Below, piece after piece: positions 36,533 to 44,144 of a DNA stretch of 64,000 bases. Source of the DNA: Escherichia phage ph0021; sequence record OP557970.1; one strand, written 5' to 3'. Made by a program: the position numbers and the translations under genes. The stretch's first letter is position 1. Every line of letters begins with the position of its first letter. Under the pieces are notes generated by a model. The model worked only from the letters and a program-made list of their open reading frames with translations. It was not told where the DNA came from and made no database searches.

Positions 36533-38589
36533 TACATTTTGAACTTTTTAGACATTCCGTTGATGTTAACCAAAGAAGTCAAGATTTGAGAAACTTCATT
36601 TTCCTCTTCTTTTGATTCTTCTACAAGGAATTGATTAAATCCAGCCATTGGACGAACTTCACCAGTTTCCATTAGATGGTCTCCATCATATACTGATTCT
36701 TCTAATTGTTCAGAAGGAGGAACGATTGTACCTTCGATTAGATACTTGTTATAAGCAGTTTCTTTCATAAAGTACGTACTTACTTTATTAATCTTCAGTA
36801 AAATTCCACGTGGTAGAATAACTTCAGCTTCTGACGGAAATCCTGATAAATGACCTGGAACGATAACTTTGATTCGCTCAGCTCCTTTAATTACCATACC
36901 CACGCTAGTTTCTGCATCTTCATTAGCATATGTAGAATGACTACCCATATGCATCAAATCTTCTGCATCAACGGAACCTTCTCCTTCACCAGAAAATACT
37001 GCGCCGGAATCATCTAGAGCCATATAGTTTTTACCATGCTCACCGAAGATATTTGGTTTAAGCGATGTGGATACGAAGTTCTTGAAATAGAACATTTTAT
37101 TTTCAATGTTATGACGCAAAGTTTTAAAGGTAACTTCTTGCCCACGGTAAAGTGTAGTTCCTGGAGGAAGAACTGATCCTTTGGCAAAGGCAGAATCTAA
37201 CGTCTCGATGTGCTTAATAGCTCGTTCCATGTATTCTTCACGGGTAGAATCTGGTTTACCCAAAAGGAACGAGTTCATTTCAACATATGAATCTGCACAA
37301 TAATCTTCAATTACATCAGATTCAGCCTGAGTCAGTCCTTTTGGAGCTACTTCGGTGCTTGCGTATTCATATGCCTGGGCAGCAGATTCATTAATCAATT
37401 TATAAATGCCATTCATGACAAATTGAATAATAGCTGTCTTTTCATCTGGTGTGGTTTTAGAACCTTTAACTAAATCATTAATAATTTTCTTAATAACATC
37501 AAAGCTATTAGAAATATTAATGTCAGCAAGATCGCTTAAAATTTTATCAGTTTTATAATCAAAGAATTCTTTATTCTTTAAATATTCTTGAGAACCTTGA
37601 TATGTTATATCGCTCTGCAACTTGATAGATGGATCACGTAAACGTGCATGGGCTAATGCAATATGATTTCGGAAACTTTCTAGTTCATAATCGTTAGATT
37701 TAAAACGAAAAGCACTTCTCATACCACCGATAGCTCCTTTGCTGAAGTTTGAACCAATCTGAATAACGCCAGAGTTCATTGGTCCTTCTGCTTTATATAC
37801 CGGAACTTTAGATTCAAATTCTTGATATTTCTTAGCAGCGAAGCTATCACCCTGAAGTGAAGCATCAACAGTAGAATATTGAGCTTGTGCTGCTAATCGA
37901 CGACTAATTTTAGTTTTCTGAATAACAGCTTGATCCGTGCGCTTATCATTTTCTAAAGCAATAGAAGCAGCAACAGCAACAGCTTTAGGAACAGCATTAC
38001 CTGTTTTAACGTCTACATAAACATCACCAACCTTTGATTCAACTTTTGTGAATAACTCGGTTGAAATAGGAGGTACACCTGGAATGTCTTCTAAATTGGC
38101 ATTTTTACGGTAAACCATAATATATGCGTACTTTTTATCATAATCCCAGATTTCCTTTAAAAGAACATATCGACCTGCTCCTTTAGTACGTACTAAACGG
38201 TCAGCAATAACTTGCATTTGACGAGCTGCGCCATTTGTTTTACTTTTTAGTACGCGGAATAGGCATGCATCAATTTTATACTGCTTCATTGTTTGAAGAG
38301 CAGTATCAAAAACAGCATTAATGACGCCAATTGGATTTCCACCCAAGTTTTTAAGCTTAACTAATGATAGTTTCTCATTAACACCTATCATTACGATATG
38401 CATCATTTTGTCGCCTGGCTTAACGTTTTTATTCGTATCACCGCCAGAGGTGTATGTACAAAATCTAAATCCAGGAAGCACGCTTTCTTCACCTGCTTGA
38501 ATAGCAAAAATTTGAGGTATTTTATGCTTAGGATTTAAGTTAACAACCGGCGCCGAAGCGCCGTCAAATAATTCTGTAATAAGTTCCAT
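36532..38589 (-). CDS. Alt-like ADP-ribosyltransferase paralog (second copy)
   Basis: 685-aa ORF; N-terminus MELITELFD... parallels Alt; retains candidate R-S-E class motifs (LYRGQ, FVSTSL, SEAEVILPRG). Confidence 0.8.
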   Translation of the reverse strand: MELITELFDGASAPVVNLNPKHKIPQIFAIQAGEESVLPGFRFCTYTSGGDTNKNVKPGDKMMHIVMIGVNEKLSLVKLKNLGGNPIGVINAVFDTALQTMKQYKIDACLFRVLKSKTNGAARQMQVIADRLVRTKGAGRYVLLKEIWDYDKKYAYIMVYRKNANLEDIPGVPPISTELFTKVESKVGDVYVDVKTGNAVPKAVAVAASIALENDKRTDQAVIQKTKISRRLAAQAQYSTVDASLQGDSFAAKKYQEFESKVPVYKAEGPMNSGVIQIGSNFSKGAIGGMRSAFRFKSNDYELESFRNHIALAHARLRDPSIKLQSDITYQGSQEYLKNKEFFDYKTDKILSDLADINISNSFDVIKKIINDLVKGSKTTPDEKTAIIQFVMNGIYKLINESAAQAYEYASTEVAPKGLTQAESDVIEDYCADSYVEMNSFLLGKPDSTREEYMERAIKHIETLDSAFAKGSVLPPGTTLYRGQEVTFKTLRHNIENKMFYFKNFVSTSLKPNIFGEHGKNYMALDDSGAVFSGEGEGSVDAEDLMHMGSHSTYANEDAETSVGMVIKGAERIKVIVPGHLSGFPSEAEVILPRGILLKINKVSTYFMKETAYNKYLIEGTIVPPSEQLEESVYDGDHLMETGEVRPMAGFNQFLVEESKEEENEVSQILTSLVNINGMSKKFKM

Positions 38590-38592
38590 GAT

Positions 38593-40686
38593 TTATCCTT
38601 GAACGAACTTGTAAGGCATGTTTGTAATATCTATGCAAGACGCAATAATTCCAAGAGATGATTCTACTTTCTGTTTAATATTTGATGAAACAAATGATGC
38701 AAAGTCAACTCTGTCTTCTATTTCAATATCACCTGTCATTGCAACCAATTCACCAGTTTCCATTAAATGGTCTCCATCATAGATTACCGATTCGGTGAGC
38801 TCTTCCGTGGTCATAACTTCAGCTTGAATGAGTTTTGTATTATTAGATGTTGTTCCGTCATTATTAGAAGCATCGGTTATTTTATTAACTTTGACCATCA
38901 ATCCACGCGGTAGAATAACTTCAGCTTCTGTTGCTATTCCGAGACTTCCTGGATATACAACATTAACTTTATGAGCTCCATCAATTGCCCATCCTATTTG
39001 AACTTTAACATATTCAGGATTTTCTTTATACGCTCTTATTTCGTTTGGATTAATAGTTATTCCTTCTTCATTTTTATCAACTGTTAATTCATTGCGAGCT
39101 TCTGGTTCTAAAAGACCAATACCAGCATGTGTGATTCCAAAACGTCCAAAAATGATAGGAGTTAAAGAAGTAGATACAAAATTTCTGAAGTAGAACACTT
39201 TATTTTTAACTAACGCTTCATATATAGGAGCAGTCATACTTTGAGCACGATAAACTGTAATGCCTTCTGGTATACGGTCACCATTTTCAAAAGCTGAATC
39301 TAAGTTATTTATAGCAGATTCAATTTCTTTTTCACTCATTACATCGTATCGTTCTGGATTGTAACGACCTAAAAGAAGATTATTGATGTCAGTATATCCT
39401 GAACCGCAATATTCTCTAATGCCACGCTTTTGTGATGGAGTATATTTAGAACCATCGCGGGCAATAGTAATATCAATCATTGGACCAGCACCAATTCCAG
39501 AAAAACTGTAAATCATTCGTTTGAGGAATTTAGTTTTTGCTGCGTTCCAGGAATTTTTAGTTATTTCTTCCCAGACTTCATCTGGTTGTCCTTTACGATT
39601 TTTATTATGATTAGCAAGCCATTTATCTTTATAATCTTCAAAGAATTGATTTACAGCTGCTGCGTATTTCTCTAAACATTTTATTGAAGTAGTTGGTTCA
39701 TTTTTAATTGCATTAAAAATTACTTCTTTAATTTTTTCTGAAACTTCACCGACTTGACTCATTGGAAAGAATTTATAATCATAGTGAAGTTCATCTGCCG
39801 TTCCTTCAGCAATAATTTTTGCTGCCTTTGTTTTAGAAGCTAATGAATTAATTCCAATTTTCATTTCTTCTGCTTCGGGAATTAAAGGTGCAGTAGCTGG
39901 TTTATTAAAATTGGCTGCTGTAGATTCATACTTCTGGAATAATTCACTTTCAAATCTAGAAGATTCCAATGACTGACTTTGTGCAATTGCTCTACGGGAA
40001 ATTTTAACTTTAACGATTACAGCTTGGTCAGAACGTTTATCATTTTCTTGTGCAATAGATGCTGCAATTGCTTCATTTTTAGTTACTTGAGCTCCAGTAT
40101 CTTTATTGATATAAACATCACCGACCTTCGATTCAACTTTAGTAAAGAGTTCAGTGCTAATTTCTGGAACTCCTGGAATGTCTTCTAATGATACATTTTT
40201 GCGATGTATAAGAATATATGCATACTTTTTATCGTAATCCCAGAGTTCCTTAAGAAGGACGTATCTGCCACCTGAACGACTACGGATAAGTCTATCAGCA
40301 ATAACTTGAATTTGTCGAGCTTGGCCAGCAGTTTTAGACTTAAGAATACGAAGCATGCAGGCATCAATTTTATATTGACGCATCGTTTGCATTGCAACAG
40401 TAAAAACTGAATTGATATAATTAATTGGGCTTGGACCAAGACCTTTTAATTTAGCAATTGAGCCTTTAGCAGTTAATGTAAAAGGAACAATATGCATCAT
40501 TTTATCGCCCATCTTTAAATCGCGATTAGTATCACCTCCAGATGTATAGGTACATAAACGAAAGCCTGGTTGTTCAATTGCATCATCAACATGAACTGAA
40601 AAAATTTGTGGTATTTTCTTCTTTGGATTTAAGTTTGTAATCGGAAGAGTAGTATCTTCGTCAAATAATTCTGTAATAAGTTCCAT
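38593..40686 (-). CDS. alt: Alt, head-packaged mono-ADP-ribosyltransferase
   Basis: 697-aa ORF starting MELITELFDEDTTLPITNLNPKKKIPQIF; motifs VYRAQ, FVSTSL, TEAEVILPRG; late promoter upstream. Confidence 0.9.
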   Translation of the reverse strand: MELITELFDEDTTLPITNLNPKKKIPQIFSVHVDDAIEQPGFRLCTYTSGGDTNRDLKMGDKMMHIVPFTLTAKGSIAKLKGLGPSPINYINSVFTVAMQTMRQYKIDACMLRILKSKTAGQARQIQVIADRLIRSRSGGRYVLLKELWDYDKKYAYILIHRKNVSLEDIPGVPEISTELFTKVESKVGDVYINKDTGAQVTKNEAIAASIAQENDKRSDQAVIVKVKISRRAIAQSQSLESSRFESELFQKYESTAANFNKPATAPLIPEAEEMKIGINSLASKTKAAKIIAEGTADELHYDYKFFPMSQVGEVSEKIKEVIFNAIKNEPTTSIKCLEKYAAAVNQFFEDYKDKWLANHNKNRKGQPDEVWEEITKNSWNAAKTKFLKRMIYSFSGIGAGPMIDITIARDGSKYTPSQKRGIREYCGSGYTDINNLLLGRYNPERYDVMSEKEIESAINNLDSAFENGDRIPEGITVYRAQSMTAPIYEALVKNKVFYFRNFVSTSLTPIIFGRFGITHAGIGLLEPEARNELTVDKNEEGITINPNEIRAYKENPEYVKVQIGWAIDGAHKVNVVYPGSLGIATEAEVILPRGLMVKVNKITDASNNDGTTSNNTKLIQAEVMTTEELTESVIYDGDHLMETGELVAMTGDIEIEDRVDFASFVSSNIKQKVESSLGIIASCIDITNMPYKFVQG

Positions 40687-40742: not shown

Positions 40743-40928
40743 TTAATAGAGAGCTAAAAGAGTACGATATACTTCAAACTTTGGACCTTTTTCATATGGA
40801 TCAAATCTTTCCGTGAATTCATCATATGCTAGTTTATCTGGGAATTCAAGAATAACCTGCGATACCGCAGTGGAAACATCTCCACCTTCTTTTTGAGCCA
40901 CGACAATTGTTTCTAAGTAAGCTTTCAT
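40743..40928 (-). CDS. hypothetical protein between gene 30 and alt
   Basis: 61-aa ORF; its start overlaps the ligase stop. Confidence 0.5.
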   Translation of the reverse strand: MKAYLETIVVAQKEGGDVSTAVSQVILEFPDKLAYDEFTERFDPYEKGPKFEVYRTLLALY

Positions 40929-42388
40929 AAACCAGTTACCTCATGAAAATCGCCAAATACATCTTCGAACGTATTAGCTTTAGTTTTATCTTCACGTAAA
41001 CGAATTGCAATTGGAAGAAATAGCTTAACGTAATCAGTACGTCCATCTAATTTTACCCAGCCGTTGCATTCGCACTCTAGAATTTTTCCAATATAATAAT
41101 TTTGGTTTTCCATAATGCGAGTACGATCAAGTTCATGCGATTTTATACCGGCTTTATCTTTTAAGCCTGAACCAGCATTTACTTTAATTTTTCCACACTC
41201 TGATTCAAGAATGAAACCACCTGCTTTAGTAGGGTCTTTACGGTGAGGATAAATTCCTACAATTTTTAAATCAACATCAATTACTTCTTTAAATTTATAA
41301 AGATTTTTTGAACGAGCATTTTCCCATAATCCATCGATATTTTTAAGAATAATACCTTCAAGACCTTGGTCAATATACTTTTTATAAATTACCTTAGCTT
41401 CATCTAGGTTATTTACTACTTGGTTTTCAATTAAAATTACTTTATCATAGCCTGATGTCATTTGTTCTAGTTTAGAAAAACGTACATCATATTTTAAACG
41501 AAATGCTGGAAGACCATATATTTCTACTAATGGAACATAGTCCCAGACCTGAAACTTCATGCATTGTGCTTCTTTTTCAGAAATGGTTCCCTTTAAAGAT
41601 TTATTAGCGATTCCATTAGAAGTAGTACGTGATTCAGCTACTTCGGCGAATTCTTTAGCTTTACTAATTTCAGGATAAGCATCAAAAAGAAAATCTAGGC
41701 CTTCTGGTTCCTTTTTAACTTGCTCATGGTATACCAATTCGCCATCAATTAACACACCTTCTGGATGAATCTGGCGAGCTTCTGCAGTCATTTTGATTAA
41801 CTCTTCCTTGAGAAGATCTAATCCTAGATATTCATTACCAGCTCGTGATAAAAGACGAACATCATCTAATTCATCACCTCTGACTTCAGCAAAACAGCGA
41901 GCTCCATCAGCTTTTAGCTGTGCAAAGGCTGGAAATTTGATATTCTTATTAATGCCTTTTTCGTCATAAGAACTTGCTAGCATTTGAGGTTGTTCAGGAA
42001 TTAAACCTGGCCAAACTTTGTTTGCAATAGATACTGATGCACCGCATTCAAGGTCTCGCATCATCACCCGACGCAAAACTTCAACATCATCTTTTTTACC
42101 GTCAGTAATATATCCAGTTAATTCCTCAATTGCCGCATTTCCAGTCAATTTCCGAGTAGCTAACGTGAATTCAATGAAGTCAAGCATATCGGTAAGAGTC
42201 AACATTCCAAAACTCTGGGTAGTAATACCCGGTTTAGGCCATTTCTTGATATAATACTGTAACCCACGAGAATAAGTCAGACGATATACTCGTTTAAGCA
42301 ATTCATTATCTTTATTCTTTTCAAGAATTGCTTGCTTCTGCTTAGTTGAACCAATAGATGCTATTTCGTTCAGAATTTTAAGAATCAT
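40925..42388 (-). CDS. 30: ATP-dependent DNA ligase gp30
   Basis: 487-aa ORF starting MILKILNEIASIGSTKQKQAILEKNKDNELLKRVYRLTY; adenylation motif KADGARC. Confidence 0.95.
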   Translation of the reverse strand: MILKILNEIASIGSTKQKQAILEKNKDNELLKRVYRLTYSRGLQYYIKKWPKPGITTQSFGMLTLTDMLDFIEFTLATRKLTGNAAIEELTGYITDGKKDDVEVLRRVMMRDLECGASVSIANKVWPGLIPEQPQMLASSYDEKGINKNIKFPAFAQLKADGARCFAEVRGDELDDVRLLSRAGNEYLGLDLLKEELIKMTAEARQIHPEGVLIDGELVYHEQVKKEPEGLDFLFDAYPEISKAKEFAEVAESRTTSNGIANKSLKGTISEKEAQCMKFQVWDYVPLVEIYGLPAFRLKYDVRFSKLEQMTSGYDKVILIENQVVNNLDEAKVIYKKYIDQGLEGIILKNIDGLWENARSKNLYKFKEVIDVDLKIVGIYPHRKDPTKAGGFILESECGKIKVNAGSGLKDKAGIKSHELDRTRIMENQNYYIGKILECECNGWVKLDGRTDYVKLFLPIAIRLREDKTKANTFEDVFGDFHEVTGL

Positions 42389-42654
42389 TGTTCATCCTTT
42401 AGAGTTTGGTTTACAGCTCTATTATAAATCAATTCATCATTAAGCTCAGTCAAAGACCTGTGATACGTGGTTCTAACTTTATTTCCTTGCATCCAGTGCT
42501 TGACATAAATGAAACCTTGCTCTACACATTTTTTAAAAATTCGTTCGTCTTTTTGAGCTCGGAATTCTGGATTGCATCTAAAAAATTGATTTACGTGACC
42601 GTAATCACGTGTAGTATTACCTTCATTTTCATAAATAGTGTGAACGACAAACAT
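42385..42654 (-). CDS. hypothetical protein (T4 30.1 position)
   Basis: 89-aa ORF overlapping the ligase start. Confidence 0.6.
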   Translation of the reverse strand: MFVVHTIYENEGNTTRDYGHVNQFFRCNPEFRAQKDERIFKKCVEQGFIYVKHWMQGNKVRTTYHRSLTELNDELIYNRAVNQTLKDEQ

Positions 42655-43490
42655 TAGAATGCTCCTTGGAAAATATTATCACCACTAGTAGGTCTATTAT
42701 ACAAATACTCTATGCCACCGGGTTTAATATAGTTCCATGTCTGAAACGGATGCGTCTGATATGGATGATATAGATTATAAGGATTAAATCCAGGAGTTCT
42801 CCAGGTAGTGTTCCAAGGAAAAGAATCGTTTTTAATCATCTTTTCAATTACATCTTTTATAGCTTTTTCACTATCAAAACTTTCTTTATTTTCATTCGAT
42901 GGAAAAAGCTTATTCTCTACATCATTCCATGTATAAACTCGCTGTGCAGTTTTTGGAATATTGTCACGCTCTCCTCGAGCCATCCAATAAACAGGAACAT
43001 TTAATATTTCACTCGCATGATCGCAGTGGTGAGCGAGATCGTCAATATAACAAATTACGTTATATTTCTCTTTTGCCTTTTTGAACAACTCTTCTTTTGA
43101 AGAATCATGACCACACATCAATACTTCTGAGAAGGCACCAGGAAAAAGAGCATTCAAATTAAATTGACGATTCAGCAGAGCGTCAATAGAATCACCCAGT
43201 GCTGTAACAGCTACAAAATTATAATCTTCTTTTAATTTGTTAATTACACACAGGGCATCTTTATATGGAGACAAATAGCGAATAAAATCTGAACGATTAT
43301 ACTTTTCGATTAATTTAACACCAAGTTCTTCATCGCAATTAAAGAGCTTACCAGGAGAAATAAATTTTTCGTCCTGAATCATTTTTAAAATATGTTCCAA
43401 CGGAAGATTATATTTTTGGGCAAAATAAGGAAGGCCTGATTGCCAGCTTAAACATACACCATCAATATCAGTCAAAATAGTAGGCTTCAT
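42654..43490 (-). CDS. HAD-superfamily phosphatase-like protein (T4 30.2 position)
   Basis: 278-aa ORF with N-terminal DxDG motif (LTDIDGVCL) typical of HAD hydrolases. Confidence 0.7.
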   Translation of the reverse strand: MKPTILTDIDGVCLSWQSGLPYFAQKYNLPLEHILKMIQDEKFISPGKLFNCDEELGVKLIEKYNRSDFIRYLSPYKDALCVINKLKEDYNFVAVTALGDSIDALLNRQFNLNALFPGAFSEVLMCGHDSSKEELFKKAKEKYNVICYIDDLAHHCDHASEILNVPVYWMARGERDNIPKTAQRVYTWNDVENKLFPSNENKESFDSEKAIKDVIEKMIKNDSFPWNTTWRTPGFNPYNLYHPYQTHPFQTWNYIKPGGIEYLYNRPTSGDNIFQGAF

Positions 43491-43951
43491 AGAGAGTCTC
43501 TTAATAGGTTTAACACATCAATAAATTCAACTTCGGTTAGTATTGTATCATCTTTTGTTAGACCACTAGCCATGCTATGCTTCAAAATTTTTCCTTTTGA
43601 GGCTTGTAAGGCATCACGAAACCCCTTGTTTTGGATCGCTGCTTCAAAATATGCATTTGTATACAATTCTTTCCACGCTGGGGAGTATCTTGAAAATGGA
43701 ACTCCGAGCCAGAAGAGGGTCCCACGGTCCGCAGCTCTTGCATAAGACCTTCCAGCTTGTTGGGCGGCAAGCCCGGATAACCCAAATATACGTCTTTGCT
43801 GCTCAACATTTTTCACCTTGCATCCTTGGAGGAATCCTTCAAGACCTCCGAATTGAATACCATCCATGACGAAAGGCCATTGGGCGAAATTACTTAATGC
43901 GCATGATGGCCATCTAAAATTGCTTCTAATCTCTAACTCAGACATTTTCAA
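43487..43951 (-). CDS. NADAR / YbiA-like (DUF1768) domain protein (T4 30.3 position)
   Basis: 154-aa ORF; LSNFAQWPFVMDGIQFGGLEGFLQGCK resembles the YbiA/NADAR signature (SNF...PF...DG...E.FQ..K). Confidence 0.6.
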   Translation of the reverse strand: MKMSELEIRSNFRWPSCALSNFAQWPFVMDGIQFGGLEGFLQGCKVKNVEQQRRIFGLSGLAAQQAGRSYARAADRGTLFWLGVPFSRYSPAWKELYTNAYFEAAIQNKGFRDALQASKGKILKHSMASGLTKDDTILTEVEFIDVLNLLRDSL

Positions 43952-44144
43952 TACTTATAATTTCAACATCAGCCCAATGACCATAGCAAGGAAGACGAAA
44001 TTCAACTGGCCAGTTAGGGTCCTTTTCTAATATAATAGACTTAACTTGTGGTTCTTCATGTTCATCAGTATATGGATTTTTATCTGTTACTTTATATGTG
44101 ACCTTAATGTATTGAATTCCAAAAATCTTATTAATTATATTCAT
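43938..44144 (-). CDS. hypothetical protein
   Basis: 68-aa ORF in the 30.x early cluster. Confidence 0.5.
   Translation of the reverse strand: MNIINKIFGIQYIKVTYKVTDKNPYTDEHEEPQVKSIILEKDPNWPVEFRLPCYGHWADVEIISIENV

Follow-up and report, generated by a model that had tools for sequence, protein, structure and literature searches.

Our analysis of a 64,000-nucleotide stretch of DNA from Escherichia phage ph0021 (record OP557970.1; hereafter the window) indicates that its gene 30.3 very probably encodes an intact AdfN, the known anti-DarTG1 factor, and that gp30.2, the HAD phosphatase encoded by the overlapping gene 30.2, stands outside the AdfN mechanism and is tied to the DNA ligase block. An initial annotation, made from the sequence alone, had described the two genes as a NADAR/YbiA-like protein and a HAD-type phosphatase that could process ADP-ribose adducts as a pair. 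The following sections weigh the identity of each protein, the evidence for and against their partnership, and other readings of their functions.

Genomic context and gene boundaries

The DNA of the region is 100% or 99.9% identical to Tequatrovirus genomes; judged by its sequence, the window is that of a Tequatrovirus (a T4-like phage) and the two ORFs are the T4 genes 30.3 and 30.2 (Table 1). As first described, ORFs of 154 and 278 aa are present on the minus strand (43487-43951 and 42654-43490) and overlap by four nucleotides, ATGA. The length of 154 aa holds for the upstream ORF counted from a TTG, but gene 30.3 almost certainly begins at the ATG at 43945; the resulting 152 aa agree with T4 gene 30.3 in length and with the numbering of E36 and K43 in the literature. 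The ORFs are not chance ones, given their profile matches (E=2.5e-68 to PF08010 for gp30.3, E=4.3e-93 to phrog_420 for gp30.2) and homologues in 1510 and 1439 phage records, respectively.

The genes are transcribed toward lower coordinates, in the order 30.4, 30.3, 30.2, 30.1 and 30 (ligase), with an overlap at every junction (the stop of 30.4 and the start of 30.3 share 8 nt). The two genes under study therefore lie upstream of the ligase gene, and not downstream of it as the initial annotation stated. A promoter and terminator scan gave no enrichment, and no promoter-like site at the 30.4-30.3 or the 30.3-30.2 junction. In T-even phages, 30.3 and 30.2 share a transcript and are coupled in translation. 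Two Alt ADP-ribosyltransferase genes, also recognized at the outset, are 41% identical to each other and lie 3-7 kb from gene 30.3. Whereas a DarT gene is adjacent in the DarTG toxin-antitoxin system, none was found next to 30.3, whose neighbours are 30.4, 30.2, 30.1 and the ligase gene; in line with the literature, 30.3 is an antitoxin-like orphan.

Table 1 Features of the 30.4-30 region and the Alt genes in the window.
Feature	Position	Strand	Remarks
Gene 30.4	43938..44144	-	68 aa, directly upstream of 30.3; phrog_2042 (function unknown); T4 annotation
Gene 30.3 (adfN)	43487..43945	-	152 aa; ORF as called by program reaches TTG 43951
NADAR active-site motif, residues 16-43 (ALSNF..PF..DG......EGFLQGCK)	43817..43900	-	Aligned to YbiA 2b3w by the family profile
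E36 codon	43838..43840	-	
K43 codon	43817..43819	-	
H123 codon	43577..43579	-	His where other NADAR subfamilies have Glu/Asp; marks the gp30.3 clade
ATGA overlap, 30.3 stop/30.2 start	43487..43490	-	4 nt, read off the sequence; translational coupling
Gene 30.2, predicted HAD phosphatase domain with C1 helical cap	42906..43490	-	Residues 1-195; cap at about residues 16-75
HAD motif I, D8-I-D10-G11 (DIDG, residues 8-11)	43458..43469	-	Nucleophile and general acid/base
Gene 30.2, C-terminal tail	42654..42905	-	Residues 196-278 and stop codon
Gene 30.1 (DUF3045)	42385..42654	-	Between 30.2 and ligase; PF11243, E=2.9e-64
Gene 30, ATP-dependent DNA ligase	40925..42388	-	ORF; ligase annotation in matching phages
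Alt gene	38593..40686		
Alt gene	36541..38589		

NADAR fold and active site of gp30.3

The gp30.3 of the window is 97% identical to that of T4 (148 of 152 residues, gap-free), and the four substitutions relative to T4 (A72Q, I120V, M124I and V138A) are conservative. The profile search proposed in the initial annotation succeeded through PF08010 (Phage_30_3), to which gp30.3 has a full-length match (1-138/138) at 228.6 bits (cut-off 36 bits), but neither through the NADAR family PF08719, which window gp30.3 did not match directly at E<=1, nor through a Pfam HAD family for gp30.2. PF08719 was matched by 11 of 33 gp30.3 homologues (best E 1.5e-7), and because the direct match is missing, the NADAR placement of gp30.3 rests on transitive homology and predicted structure. 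Single-sequence PDB searches with gp30.3 and gp30.2 returned noise only; the gp30.3 family profile reached YbiA (2b3w, E=0.0076) over the catalytic motif. The AF2 model of gp30.3 (pLDDT 93, pTM 0.88) found its closest PDB folds in the NADAR structures 2b3w (YbiA; 1.2e-4, TM 0.69), 8bau (PnNADAR) and 8bat (Geobacter NADAR), and no PDB fold beyond these three entries had a probability above 0.1. The comparison of the predicted structure with YbiA thus bore out the NADAR assignment, and the catalytic E36 and K43 align to the E and K of YbiA.

The active-site pattern, originally written as SNF...PF..DG...E.FQ..K, was close to the exact form, SNF-x3-PF-x2-DG-x6-E-x-F-x-Q-x2-K. Across an alignment of 33 homologues, A16, L17, S18, N19, F20, F25, E36, G37, F38, Q40 and H123 are invariant and K43 is kept in at least 90%. 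The DarG1 NADAR of Geobacter lovleyi (8bat) and YbiA (2b3w), for both of which guanine-ADPr glycohydrolase chemistry is reported in the literature, have the same alpha+beta NADAR fold and the SNF...E.F.Q..K motif, though the identity of gp30.3 to NADAR PDB structures is only 15-17%. DarG1 also carries an N-terminal extension that gp30.3 lacks, and the residue in the last strand is His in gp30.3, Asp in DarG1 and Glu in YbiA; a His at this position distinguishes phage NADARs (PMC11125620). Nothing that would set function apart was found between window gp30.3 and T4 AdfN (PF08010), which has the same length of 152 aa, the same site between 30.4 and 30.2, E36/K43, the clade-specific H123 and an intact C-terminal helix. 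In the window protein this helix (residues 138-151) is modelled with confidence, and there is no C-terminal truncation of the RB69 type.

Activity of AdfN against DarTG1

Experiments have shown that T4 AdfN defeats DarTG1 defence (Nat Commun 2025; Toxins 2024). Deletion of adfN makes T4 and T2 sensitive to DarTG1, RB69 is rescued by ectopic AdfN, and AdfN removes ADP-ribose from DNA in vitro, with E36A and K43A impairing the T4 protein (PMC11825919). T4 NADAR hydrolyses guanine-ADPr and, among the substrates assayed, NADARs removed guanine-linked and not thymidine-linked ADP-ribose (PMC11125620). Insertions in 30.3 are likewise lost on a DarTG1 host (log2FC -7.25; published T4 HIDEN-SEQ). The knockout plating on DarT-type hosts and the in vitro hydrolase assay that the initial annotation proposed have thus already been carried out in T4 (PMC11825919, PMC11125620), and the anti-DarT role it suggested is proven for a protein 97% identical to the one studied here.

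For the T4 protein, experiments thus show how AdfN works: during infection it cleaves the N-glycosidic bond that joins ADP-ribose to guanine in phage DNA modified by the host toxin DarT1, so that replication can go ahead on DarTG1-carrying hosts. Since window gp30.3 is full-length, holds all catalytic residues and is 97% identical to the T4 protein, we infer that it is active.

Predicted fold and family of gp30.2

The HAD protein gp30.2 is identical to its T4 counterpart at 271 of 278 residues. The window protein matched nothing in Pfam and NCBIfam, including PF00702 and PF13419 at curated thresholds and PF06941 (NT5C; gathering score 24.8 bits), and because of this its family placement draws on transitive homology and predicted structure. 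Members of its family have weak Hydrolase, NT5C and HAD_2 matches: PF00702 was matched by 10 of 34 homologues (best E 3.5e-4) and PF06941 by 6 of 34 (best E 1.2e-4), with 21.6 bits for the homologue at locus L074 and a passing score (32.6 bits) only for the HAD of contig L168, which has another gene order.

Residues 1-195 are confidently predicted to form a HAD phosphatase fold with a C1 cap: AF2 gave pLDDT >90 over this span, and the model shows the Rossmannoid HAD fold, in which a helical cap follows motif I as an insertion. All four HAD motifs (DxD, S/T, K, DD) are present. In both close and distant sets of homologues, D8, D10 and K132 are invariant and T96 and D150/D151 are kept in at least 90%; G11, W16, R108 and N111 are also conserved in the family. 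The earlier description of a HAD-type phosphatase with a DxDG motif was right as to both fold and motifs. The tail (residues 196-278) is variable, aromatic/Pro-rich and mostly modelled with low confidence (pLDDT 43-55 over most of residues 221-278), and it is missing or different in many homologues, though it contains a conserved GIEY..N.PT motif.

The nearest family is that of the NT5C 5'(3')-deoxyribonucleotidases. The best Foldseek and PDB-profile match was cdN (2jao, E=0.011 with the family profile), in which DvDGvlvkWqSgl is aligned to MDGVLADFESGL, motif I aligning with DMDGV of mouse cdN. NT5C proteins are expected to have nucleotidase activity and an aromatic, base-stacking residue four positions past DxDG; in gp30.2, W16, at least 90% conserved, aligns with the corresponding Phe of cdN. 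Like gp30.2, NT5C proteins (cdN/mdN, PF06941; HAD subfamily I) have a Rossmannoid core with a helical C1 cap, an aromatic residue after motif I (DIDGVCLSW in gp30.2, DMDGVLADF in cdN), a motif III Lys and a motif IV DD. However, identity is 14-20%, the window protein falls below the Pfam threshold, and gp30.2 departs from NT5C in an extra helix between motifs III and IV, the family-specific invariant R108/N111 and the C-terminal tail of 83 residues. We describe gp30.2 as a predicted Mg2+-dependent HAD-superfamily phosphomonoesterase that bears a C1 cap and whose active-site entry, 'DxDGVxxxW', resembles that of NT5C; its substrate would be a small phosphorylated nucleotide-type metabolite.

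Other sources offered few clues to a partner or role. A literature search found nothing on gp30.2 or a characterized T4 30.2, and 30.2 is unmentioned in a paper on m6-dAMP-sensing PUA-Cal-HAD defence. Among relatives with domain fusions, the extra domains of P0225, P0280, P0177 and P0216 had no Pfam match. Searching bacterial genomes for gp30.2 relatives yielded one match, on a contig that, at 178 kb, is as long as a T4-like phage genome and may be phage DNA within a bacterial assembly.

Association of gp30.2 with the DNA ligase

Our comparison of loci indicates that the stable genomic partner of gp30.2 is the ATP-dependent DNA ligase block and not NADAR. The ligase gene is adjacent (within about 1.5 kb) in 75 of 80 gp30.2 loci, flipped-order loci included; in seven divergent loci the ligase gene comes first, the reverse of the usual order, yet remains adjacent. 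At L074 the order is ligase, a 107-aa ORF and HAD, with 4-nt overlaps.

A broad interpretation of this arrangement, which we consider unlikely on balance, is that HAD (NT5C-type), NADAR and ATP-dependent ligase constitute an ancestral module of T4-like phages that deals with nucleotides or DNA ends damaged by ADP-ribosylation or other modification. One possible version has gp30.2 dephosphorylating modified dNMPs from attacked or host DNA and so barring their re-incorporation; another, equally conjectural, has it healing phosphate-blocked ends for the ligase. Either role, it is proposed, would go unseen in Tn-seq because it is redundant under laboratory conditions.

That gp30.2 might be a DNA-end-healing 3'-phosphatase, readying nicks for the neighbouring ligase like the phosphatase domain of PNKP, appears improbable, even with the adjacency, its survival of order reversal, the arrangement at L074 and a weak match of residues 74-176 to phrog_415 'polynucleotide kinase' (E=0.0029) in its favour. 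Within the HAD superfamily a C1 cap goes with small-molecule substrates, whereas PNKP, T4 PseT and other phosphatases that act on macromolecules have no cap. In the gp30.2 model the C1 helical cap is complete, T4 is already equipped with a 3'-phosphatase in PseT, marine T4-like relatives have the HAD with no ligase called within about 4 kb, and the ligase is essential while 30.2 is non-essential (insertions at 72/72 TA sites; published T4 Tn-seq); inherited synteny may, moreover, account for most of the adjacency. The T4 PseT and PNKP 3'-phosphatase domains do share with gp30.2 the HAD DxDG chemistry and a genomic tie to nucleic-acid ligation enzymes, but they are kinase-fused and gp30.2 stands alone, and the sole link between them is the marginal PHROG match.

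Relationship of gp30.2 and gene 30.4 to AdfN

The initial annotation treated 30.3 and 30.2 as a functional pair, in effect a two-step ADP-ribose module in which the NADAR would free ADP-ribose or an ADP-ribosylated nucleotide and the HAD would process the product. We regard such a module as quite improbable. The genes have the same orientation and a 4-nt overlap, each family occurs in nearly all Straboviridae and their genus counts almost coincide, and 36 of 80 gp30.2 loci have a NADAR at most 4 kb upstream. Proximity also recurs despite gene orders unlike that of T4: on the divergent phage contig L168 a genuine NT5C gene sits directly beside a gp30.3-like NADAR, and on another divergent contig, L121, 0.7 kb separates a gp30.2-like HAD from the NADAR downstream of it. 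However, such a HAD was present within 4 kb at only 18 of 80 gp30.3-like loci and absent from 62, at least ten T4-like genomes have 53-69 kb between the two genes, and marine relatives have the HAD with no gp30.3-like gene called within about 4 kb. By established chemistry, NADARs restore an undamaged base and release free ADP-ribose, a reaction that needs no phosphatase to complete it.

Genetic data weigh against the pair as well. In contrast to the loss of 30.3 insertions, those in 30.2 were neutral on DarTG1 (log2FC -0.12, p=0.61), on DarTG2 (0.00) and in M9 medium (-0.10), in a published T4 HIDEN-SEQ screen of one host and few conditions from which a redundant or condition-specific role of gp30.2 in ADP-ribose handling could escape. 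We place gp30.2 outside the mechanism by which AdfN counters DarTG1.

T4 AdfN did not rescue DarT1 toxicity in uninfected cells, and full AdfN activity was inferred to need a further T-even factor (PMC11825919), a point that could favour a paired gene. Given the neutrality of 30.2 in all three HIDEN-SEQ conditions, we reject gp30.2 as this missing potentiator. The only gene besides 30.3 with a significant effect on DarTG1 was 30.4 (log2FC -1.79, padj 0.014; T4 Tn-seq), which may be a helper of adfN or merely translationally coupled to it; for the T-even factor, the Tn-seq data point weakly toward 30.4 and away from 30.2. A jackhmmer search placed 30.4 upstream of gp30.3-like NADARs in 13 of 80 loci, all in the close T-even group, a distribution that neither backs nor excludes a helper role.

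Other substrates for gp30.3

Alt modifies proteins. It is highly improbable that, in place of acting on DNA, gp30.3 takes soluble ribosyl intermediates as its substrates, in the riboflavin pathway or elsewhere, as YbiA does, or undoes the ADP-ribosylation of proteins by Alt: E. coli YbiA is its best structural match, two Alt genes lie nearby, and surveys by the Aravind group proposed soluble ADP-ribose derivatives for phage NADARs and noted NADAR co-expression with ARTs in T4-like phages, but this reading is largely refuted already by published biochemistry and genetics on the 97%-identical T4 protein, which show DNA guanine-ADPr hydrolysis and DarTG1 counter-defence, and the gp30.3 clade has His where YbiA has Glu. 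Insertions in alt were neutral on DarTG1 (published T4 HIDEN-SEQ), and the tie to the phage's own Alt enzymes raised in the initial annotation found no support; in the published assays, NADARs acted on guanine-linked and not on thymidine-linked ADP-ribose.

Implications

The NADAR identity and anti-DarT role of gp30.3 are already published, and their novelty here is low. The phosphatase gp30.2 has its catalytic residues intact and is conserved across some 1400 sequenced T4-like phages and, at 50% identity, over 1400 clusters, and despite this wide conservation the gene has shown no phenotype in any condition tested. With its AdfN intact, the phage is predicted to resist hosts that carry DarTG1.

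Genomic setting of the 30.2 and 30.3 genes

Both ORFs of the pair proposed in the initial annotation are real: they match T4 genes 30.3 (adfN) and 30.2, lie within the minus-strand early-gene block of a Tequatrovirus, and overlap. Gene names and transcription order were assigned from the T4 reference annotation, and every junction from 30.4 through the ligase gene is overlapping (8, 4, 1, and 4 nt, in order). By transcription direction the pair is upstream of DNA ligase, rather than downstream of it as originally described, and the length of 154 aa given for the first ORF came from a TTG start in a mechanical ORF list only; the ATG at 43945 gives 152 aa, as in T4.

Features of the 30.4–alt region, listed in order of transcription
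Feature	Coordinates	Strand	Remarks
30.4	43938-44144	-	T4 annotation
30.3 (adfN)	43487-43945	-	T4 annotation
30.3'	43582-43809	-	75-aa out-of-frame ORF inside adfN; in T4, 'internal translation in a different reading frame'
30.2	42654-43490	-	T4 annotation
gp30.2 tail	42657-42905	-	residues 196-278
30.1 (DUF3045)	42385-42654	-	T4 annotation
Gene 30 (DNA ligase)	40925-42388	-	T4 annotation
alt.1			T4 annotation; between gene 30 and the two Alt paralogues
Alt paralogue 1	38593-40686	-	41% identical to paralogue 2
Alt paralogue 2	36541-38589	-	41% identical to paralogue 1

The two Alt-type ADP-ribosyltransferase paralogues are full-length and stand in tandem, whereas T4 has a single alt plus the short duplication remnants alt.-1 and alt.-2. 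The DNA at 42300-44200 matches 720 phage records, nearly all T4-like, and is 99.9% identical to Escherichia phage AugustSocin. Its sole 100% match is 'Pseudomonas phage PsgM02F' (OR584013.1, host Pseudomonas coronafaciens), whose sequence is that of a typical E. coli-type Tequatrovirus, so the host label may be an oddity.

Gene 30.3 and AdfN

The gp30.3 protein matched Pfam family PF08010 (Phage_30_3, E=2.5e-68) but in the same profile search had no match of its own to PF08719 (NADAR). Its place among NADAR proteins is nevertheless solid, since PF08719 was also matched by 11 of 33 diverse homologues (best E 1.5e-7), the catalytic stretch of the family profile aligned to E. coli YbiA (E=0.0076), and the AlphaFold model (pLDDT 93, pTM 0.88) found credible PDB matches only in the PDB's three NADAR structures, YbiA (2b3w), a Phytophthora NADAR (8bau), and a Geobacter DarT-associated NADAR (8bat). 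Across the 33-homologue alignment, E36, G37, F38, Q40, and H123 were invariant and K43 nearly so. The NADAR motif first read from the sequence is present, though its spacing is SNF-x3-PF-x2-DG-x6-E-x-F-x-Q-x2-K. With 148 of 152 residues identical to T4 gp30.3 and an intact C-terminus, the gene is, judged by its sequence, adfN, and the NADAR claim stands.

Many gp30.3 database entries (P0104-P0120, P0145, and P0165) are short fragments of 83-126 aa or match a second, unrelated Pfam family beside PF08010. Like the known frameshift of RB69, such entries hint that natural T-even genomes frequently have a broken or mis-called adfN.

The function proposed for this ORF, removal of ADP-ribose from guanine as a counter to DarT, is already published for the T4 protein, as are the experiments suggested for it, so that the feature is known from the T4 literature. 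Renamed AdfN (Nat Commun 2025, PMC11825919), purified T4 gp30.3 strips ADP-ribose from DarT1-modified DNA and is impaired by E36A/K43A; its authors inferred an additional T-even factor.PMC11825919 In vitro, the T4 NADAR removes ADP-ribose specifically from guanine (Toxins 2024, PMC11125620), and H123 is the histidine that marks the phage subfamily, where YbiA has Glu and DarG1, the NADAR-bearing antitoxin, has Asp.PMC11125620 In the HIDEN-SEQ preprint (T4 transposon-insertion sequencing), 30.3 insertions were wholly lost on hosts with the DarTG1 defence system.

Gene 30.2 encodes a HAD phosphatase

Compared directly with Pfam, NCBIfam, and PDB sequences, the 278-aa gp30.2 had no match; it hit only phrog_420 ('function unknown'). 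The HAD assignment was borne out at the level of fold, on which the structure searches agree. All four HAD motifs are kept among 34 homologues (D8-x-D10-G11 and K132, both invariant, T96, and D150-D151), W16, R108, and N111 are conserved as well, and all of these residues are retained in 56 far more distant relatives. Residues 1-195 were modelled confidently by AlphaFold (pLDDT above 90) as a Rossmannoid core that is interrupted right after strand 1 by a helical segment (16-72), a C1 cap. Foldseek returned 119 PDB matches at E<=1e-3. Each of the best 50 is either a HAD-superfamily structure or an enzyme engineered on a HAD scaffold; the top ones are mouse cytosolic 5'(3')-deoxyribonucleotidase (cdN, 1.8e-8), YfnB of B. 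subtilis, and a deoxyribonucleotidase-like protein from a staphylococcus. cdN was again best when the family profile was compared with PDB sequences (E=0.011); DvDGvlvkWqSgl aligned with MDGVLADFESGL, which places W16 at the position of the base-stacking Phe of cdN. Matches of homologues to PF00702, PF06941, and PF13419 were weak and mostly under threshold.

In the HAD superfamily, capped enzymes act on small molecules and capless ones on macromolecules. We predict that gp30.2 is a Mg2+-dependent phosphomonoesterase acting on a small, probably nucleotide-like molecule, a substrate class suggested by the C1 cap and a weak affinity to the NT5C family.

The mostly low-confidence tail of gp30.2 is aromatic- and proline-rich. 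It bears a GIEY-x2-N-x-PT motif, conserved in enterobacterial T4-like phages and missing from many shorter (~200 aa) homologues, and the tail could be a protein-interaction peptide. Two homologues, P0225 (591 aa) and P0280 (660 aa), fuse the HAD domain to large N-terminal regions without a Pfam match; a GDLD-type motif in that of P0225 recalls minimal nucleotidyltransferases.

The family comprises 1486 clusters (50% identity, E<=1e-3), and the contexts inspected were T4-like phage genomes or phage-like contigs; bacterial assemblies gave a single match, on a 178-kb contig that is as long as a T4-like phage genome. In 75 of 80 viral loci, 30.2 has an ATP-dependent DNA ligase gene no farther than ~1.5 kb away, an association that is only suggestive because much of it is inherited T4 synteny. 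Among these, ligase/HAD order is inverted in seven divergent loci (35-40% identity; L070, L074, L076-L080), with PF01068 confirming the ligases; in L070 the ligase directly abuts the HAD gene, and in L074 ligase, a 107-aa ORF, and HAD follow with overlapping junctions. Marine T4-like relatives had no ligase among called genes within ~4 kb of the HAD gene, whose neighbours there include DNA polymerase B, clamp loader, and phosphoribosyltransferase; the general theme is a DNA and nucleotide-metabolism neighbourhood. That gp30.2 is a DNA 3'-phosphatase serving ligase is a live but minor alternative; the C1 cap counts against it, as does the fact that T4 has PseT.

Do gp30.2 and AdfN act together?

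The proposal that the two proteins jointly process ADP-ribose adducts is not supported. In its favour, the genes overlap, the families have a similar spread (1439 phage records for gp30.2 versus 1510 for gp30.3, with matching genus counts), and HAD is a short way upstream of NADAR in two divergent contigs, L121 and L168 (in the latter a bona fide NT5C protein, 32.6 bits, then a gp30.3-like NADAR and an ATP-dependent ligase). The evidence against a link is stronger. In the T4 HIDEN-SEQ supplementary tables (control versus DarTG1), insertions were depleted in 30.3 (log2FC -7.25, padj 0) and neutral in 30.2 (-0.12, p=0.61), as in 30.1 (-0.01, not significant). On DarTG2 (0.00) and in M9 compared with LB (-0.10), gene 30.2 was likewise neutral; it is non-essential, with insertions at 72/72 TA sites. 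A gp30.3-like gene occurs within 4 kb in only 36 of 80 gp30.2 viral loci (always upstream), the reciprocal figure is only 18 of 80, and the two genes are 53-69 kb apart in at least 10 genomes common to both locus sets. The known mechanism does not call for a phosphatase, because NADAR hydrolysis restores guanine to its intact form and releases ADP-ribose. Tn-seq neutrality, locus counts, distances, and this chemistry together indicate that the additional T-even factor is not gp30.2, or that gp30.2 is at any rate dispensable in that role.

Gene 30.4 and residual interest

Besides 30.3, the T4 HIDEN-SEQ supplementary data show just one gene, 30.4, as significantly conditionally essential on DarTG1 (log2FC -1.79, padj 0.014). 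The end of 30.4 and the adfN start overlap by 8 nt, and no obvious Shine-Dalgarno sequence precedes adfN; the signal is therefore most simply explained by polarity or by the translational coupling of 30.4 to adfN, but 30.4 could be the T-even helper of AdfN. A search for 30.4 homologues detected them solely among close T-even relatives, beside AdfN alleles at least 83% identical.

With AdfN known from T4, the residual interest of this region lies in the Tn-seq hint that 30.4 might exceed a polar effect, and in gp30.2 as a very widespread phage HAD phosphatase that is catalytically intact by its motifs and phenotypically silent.
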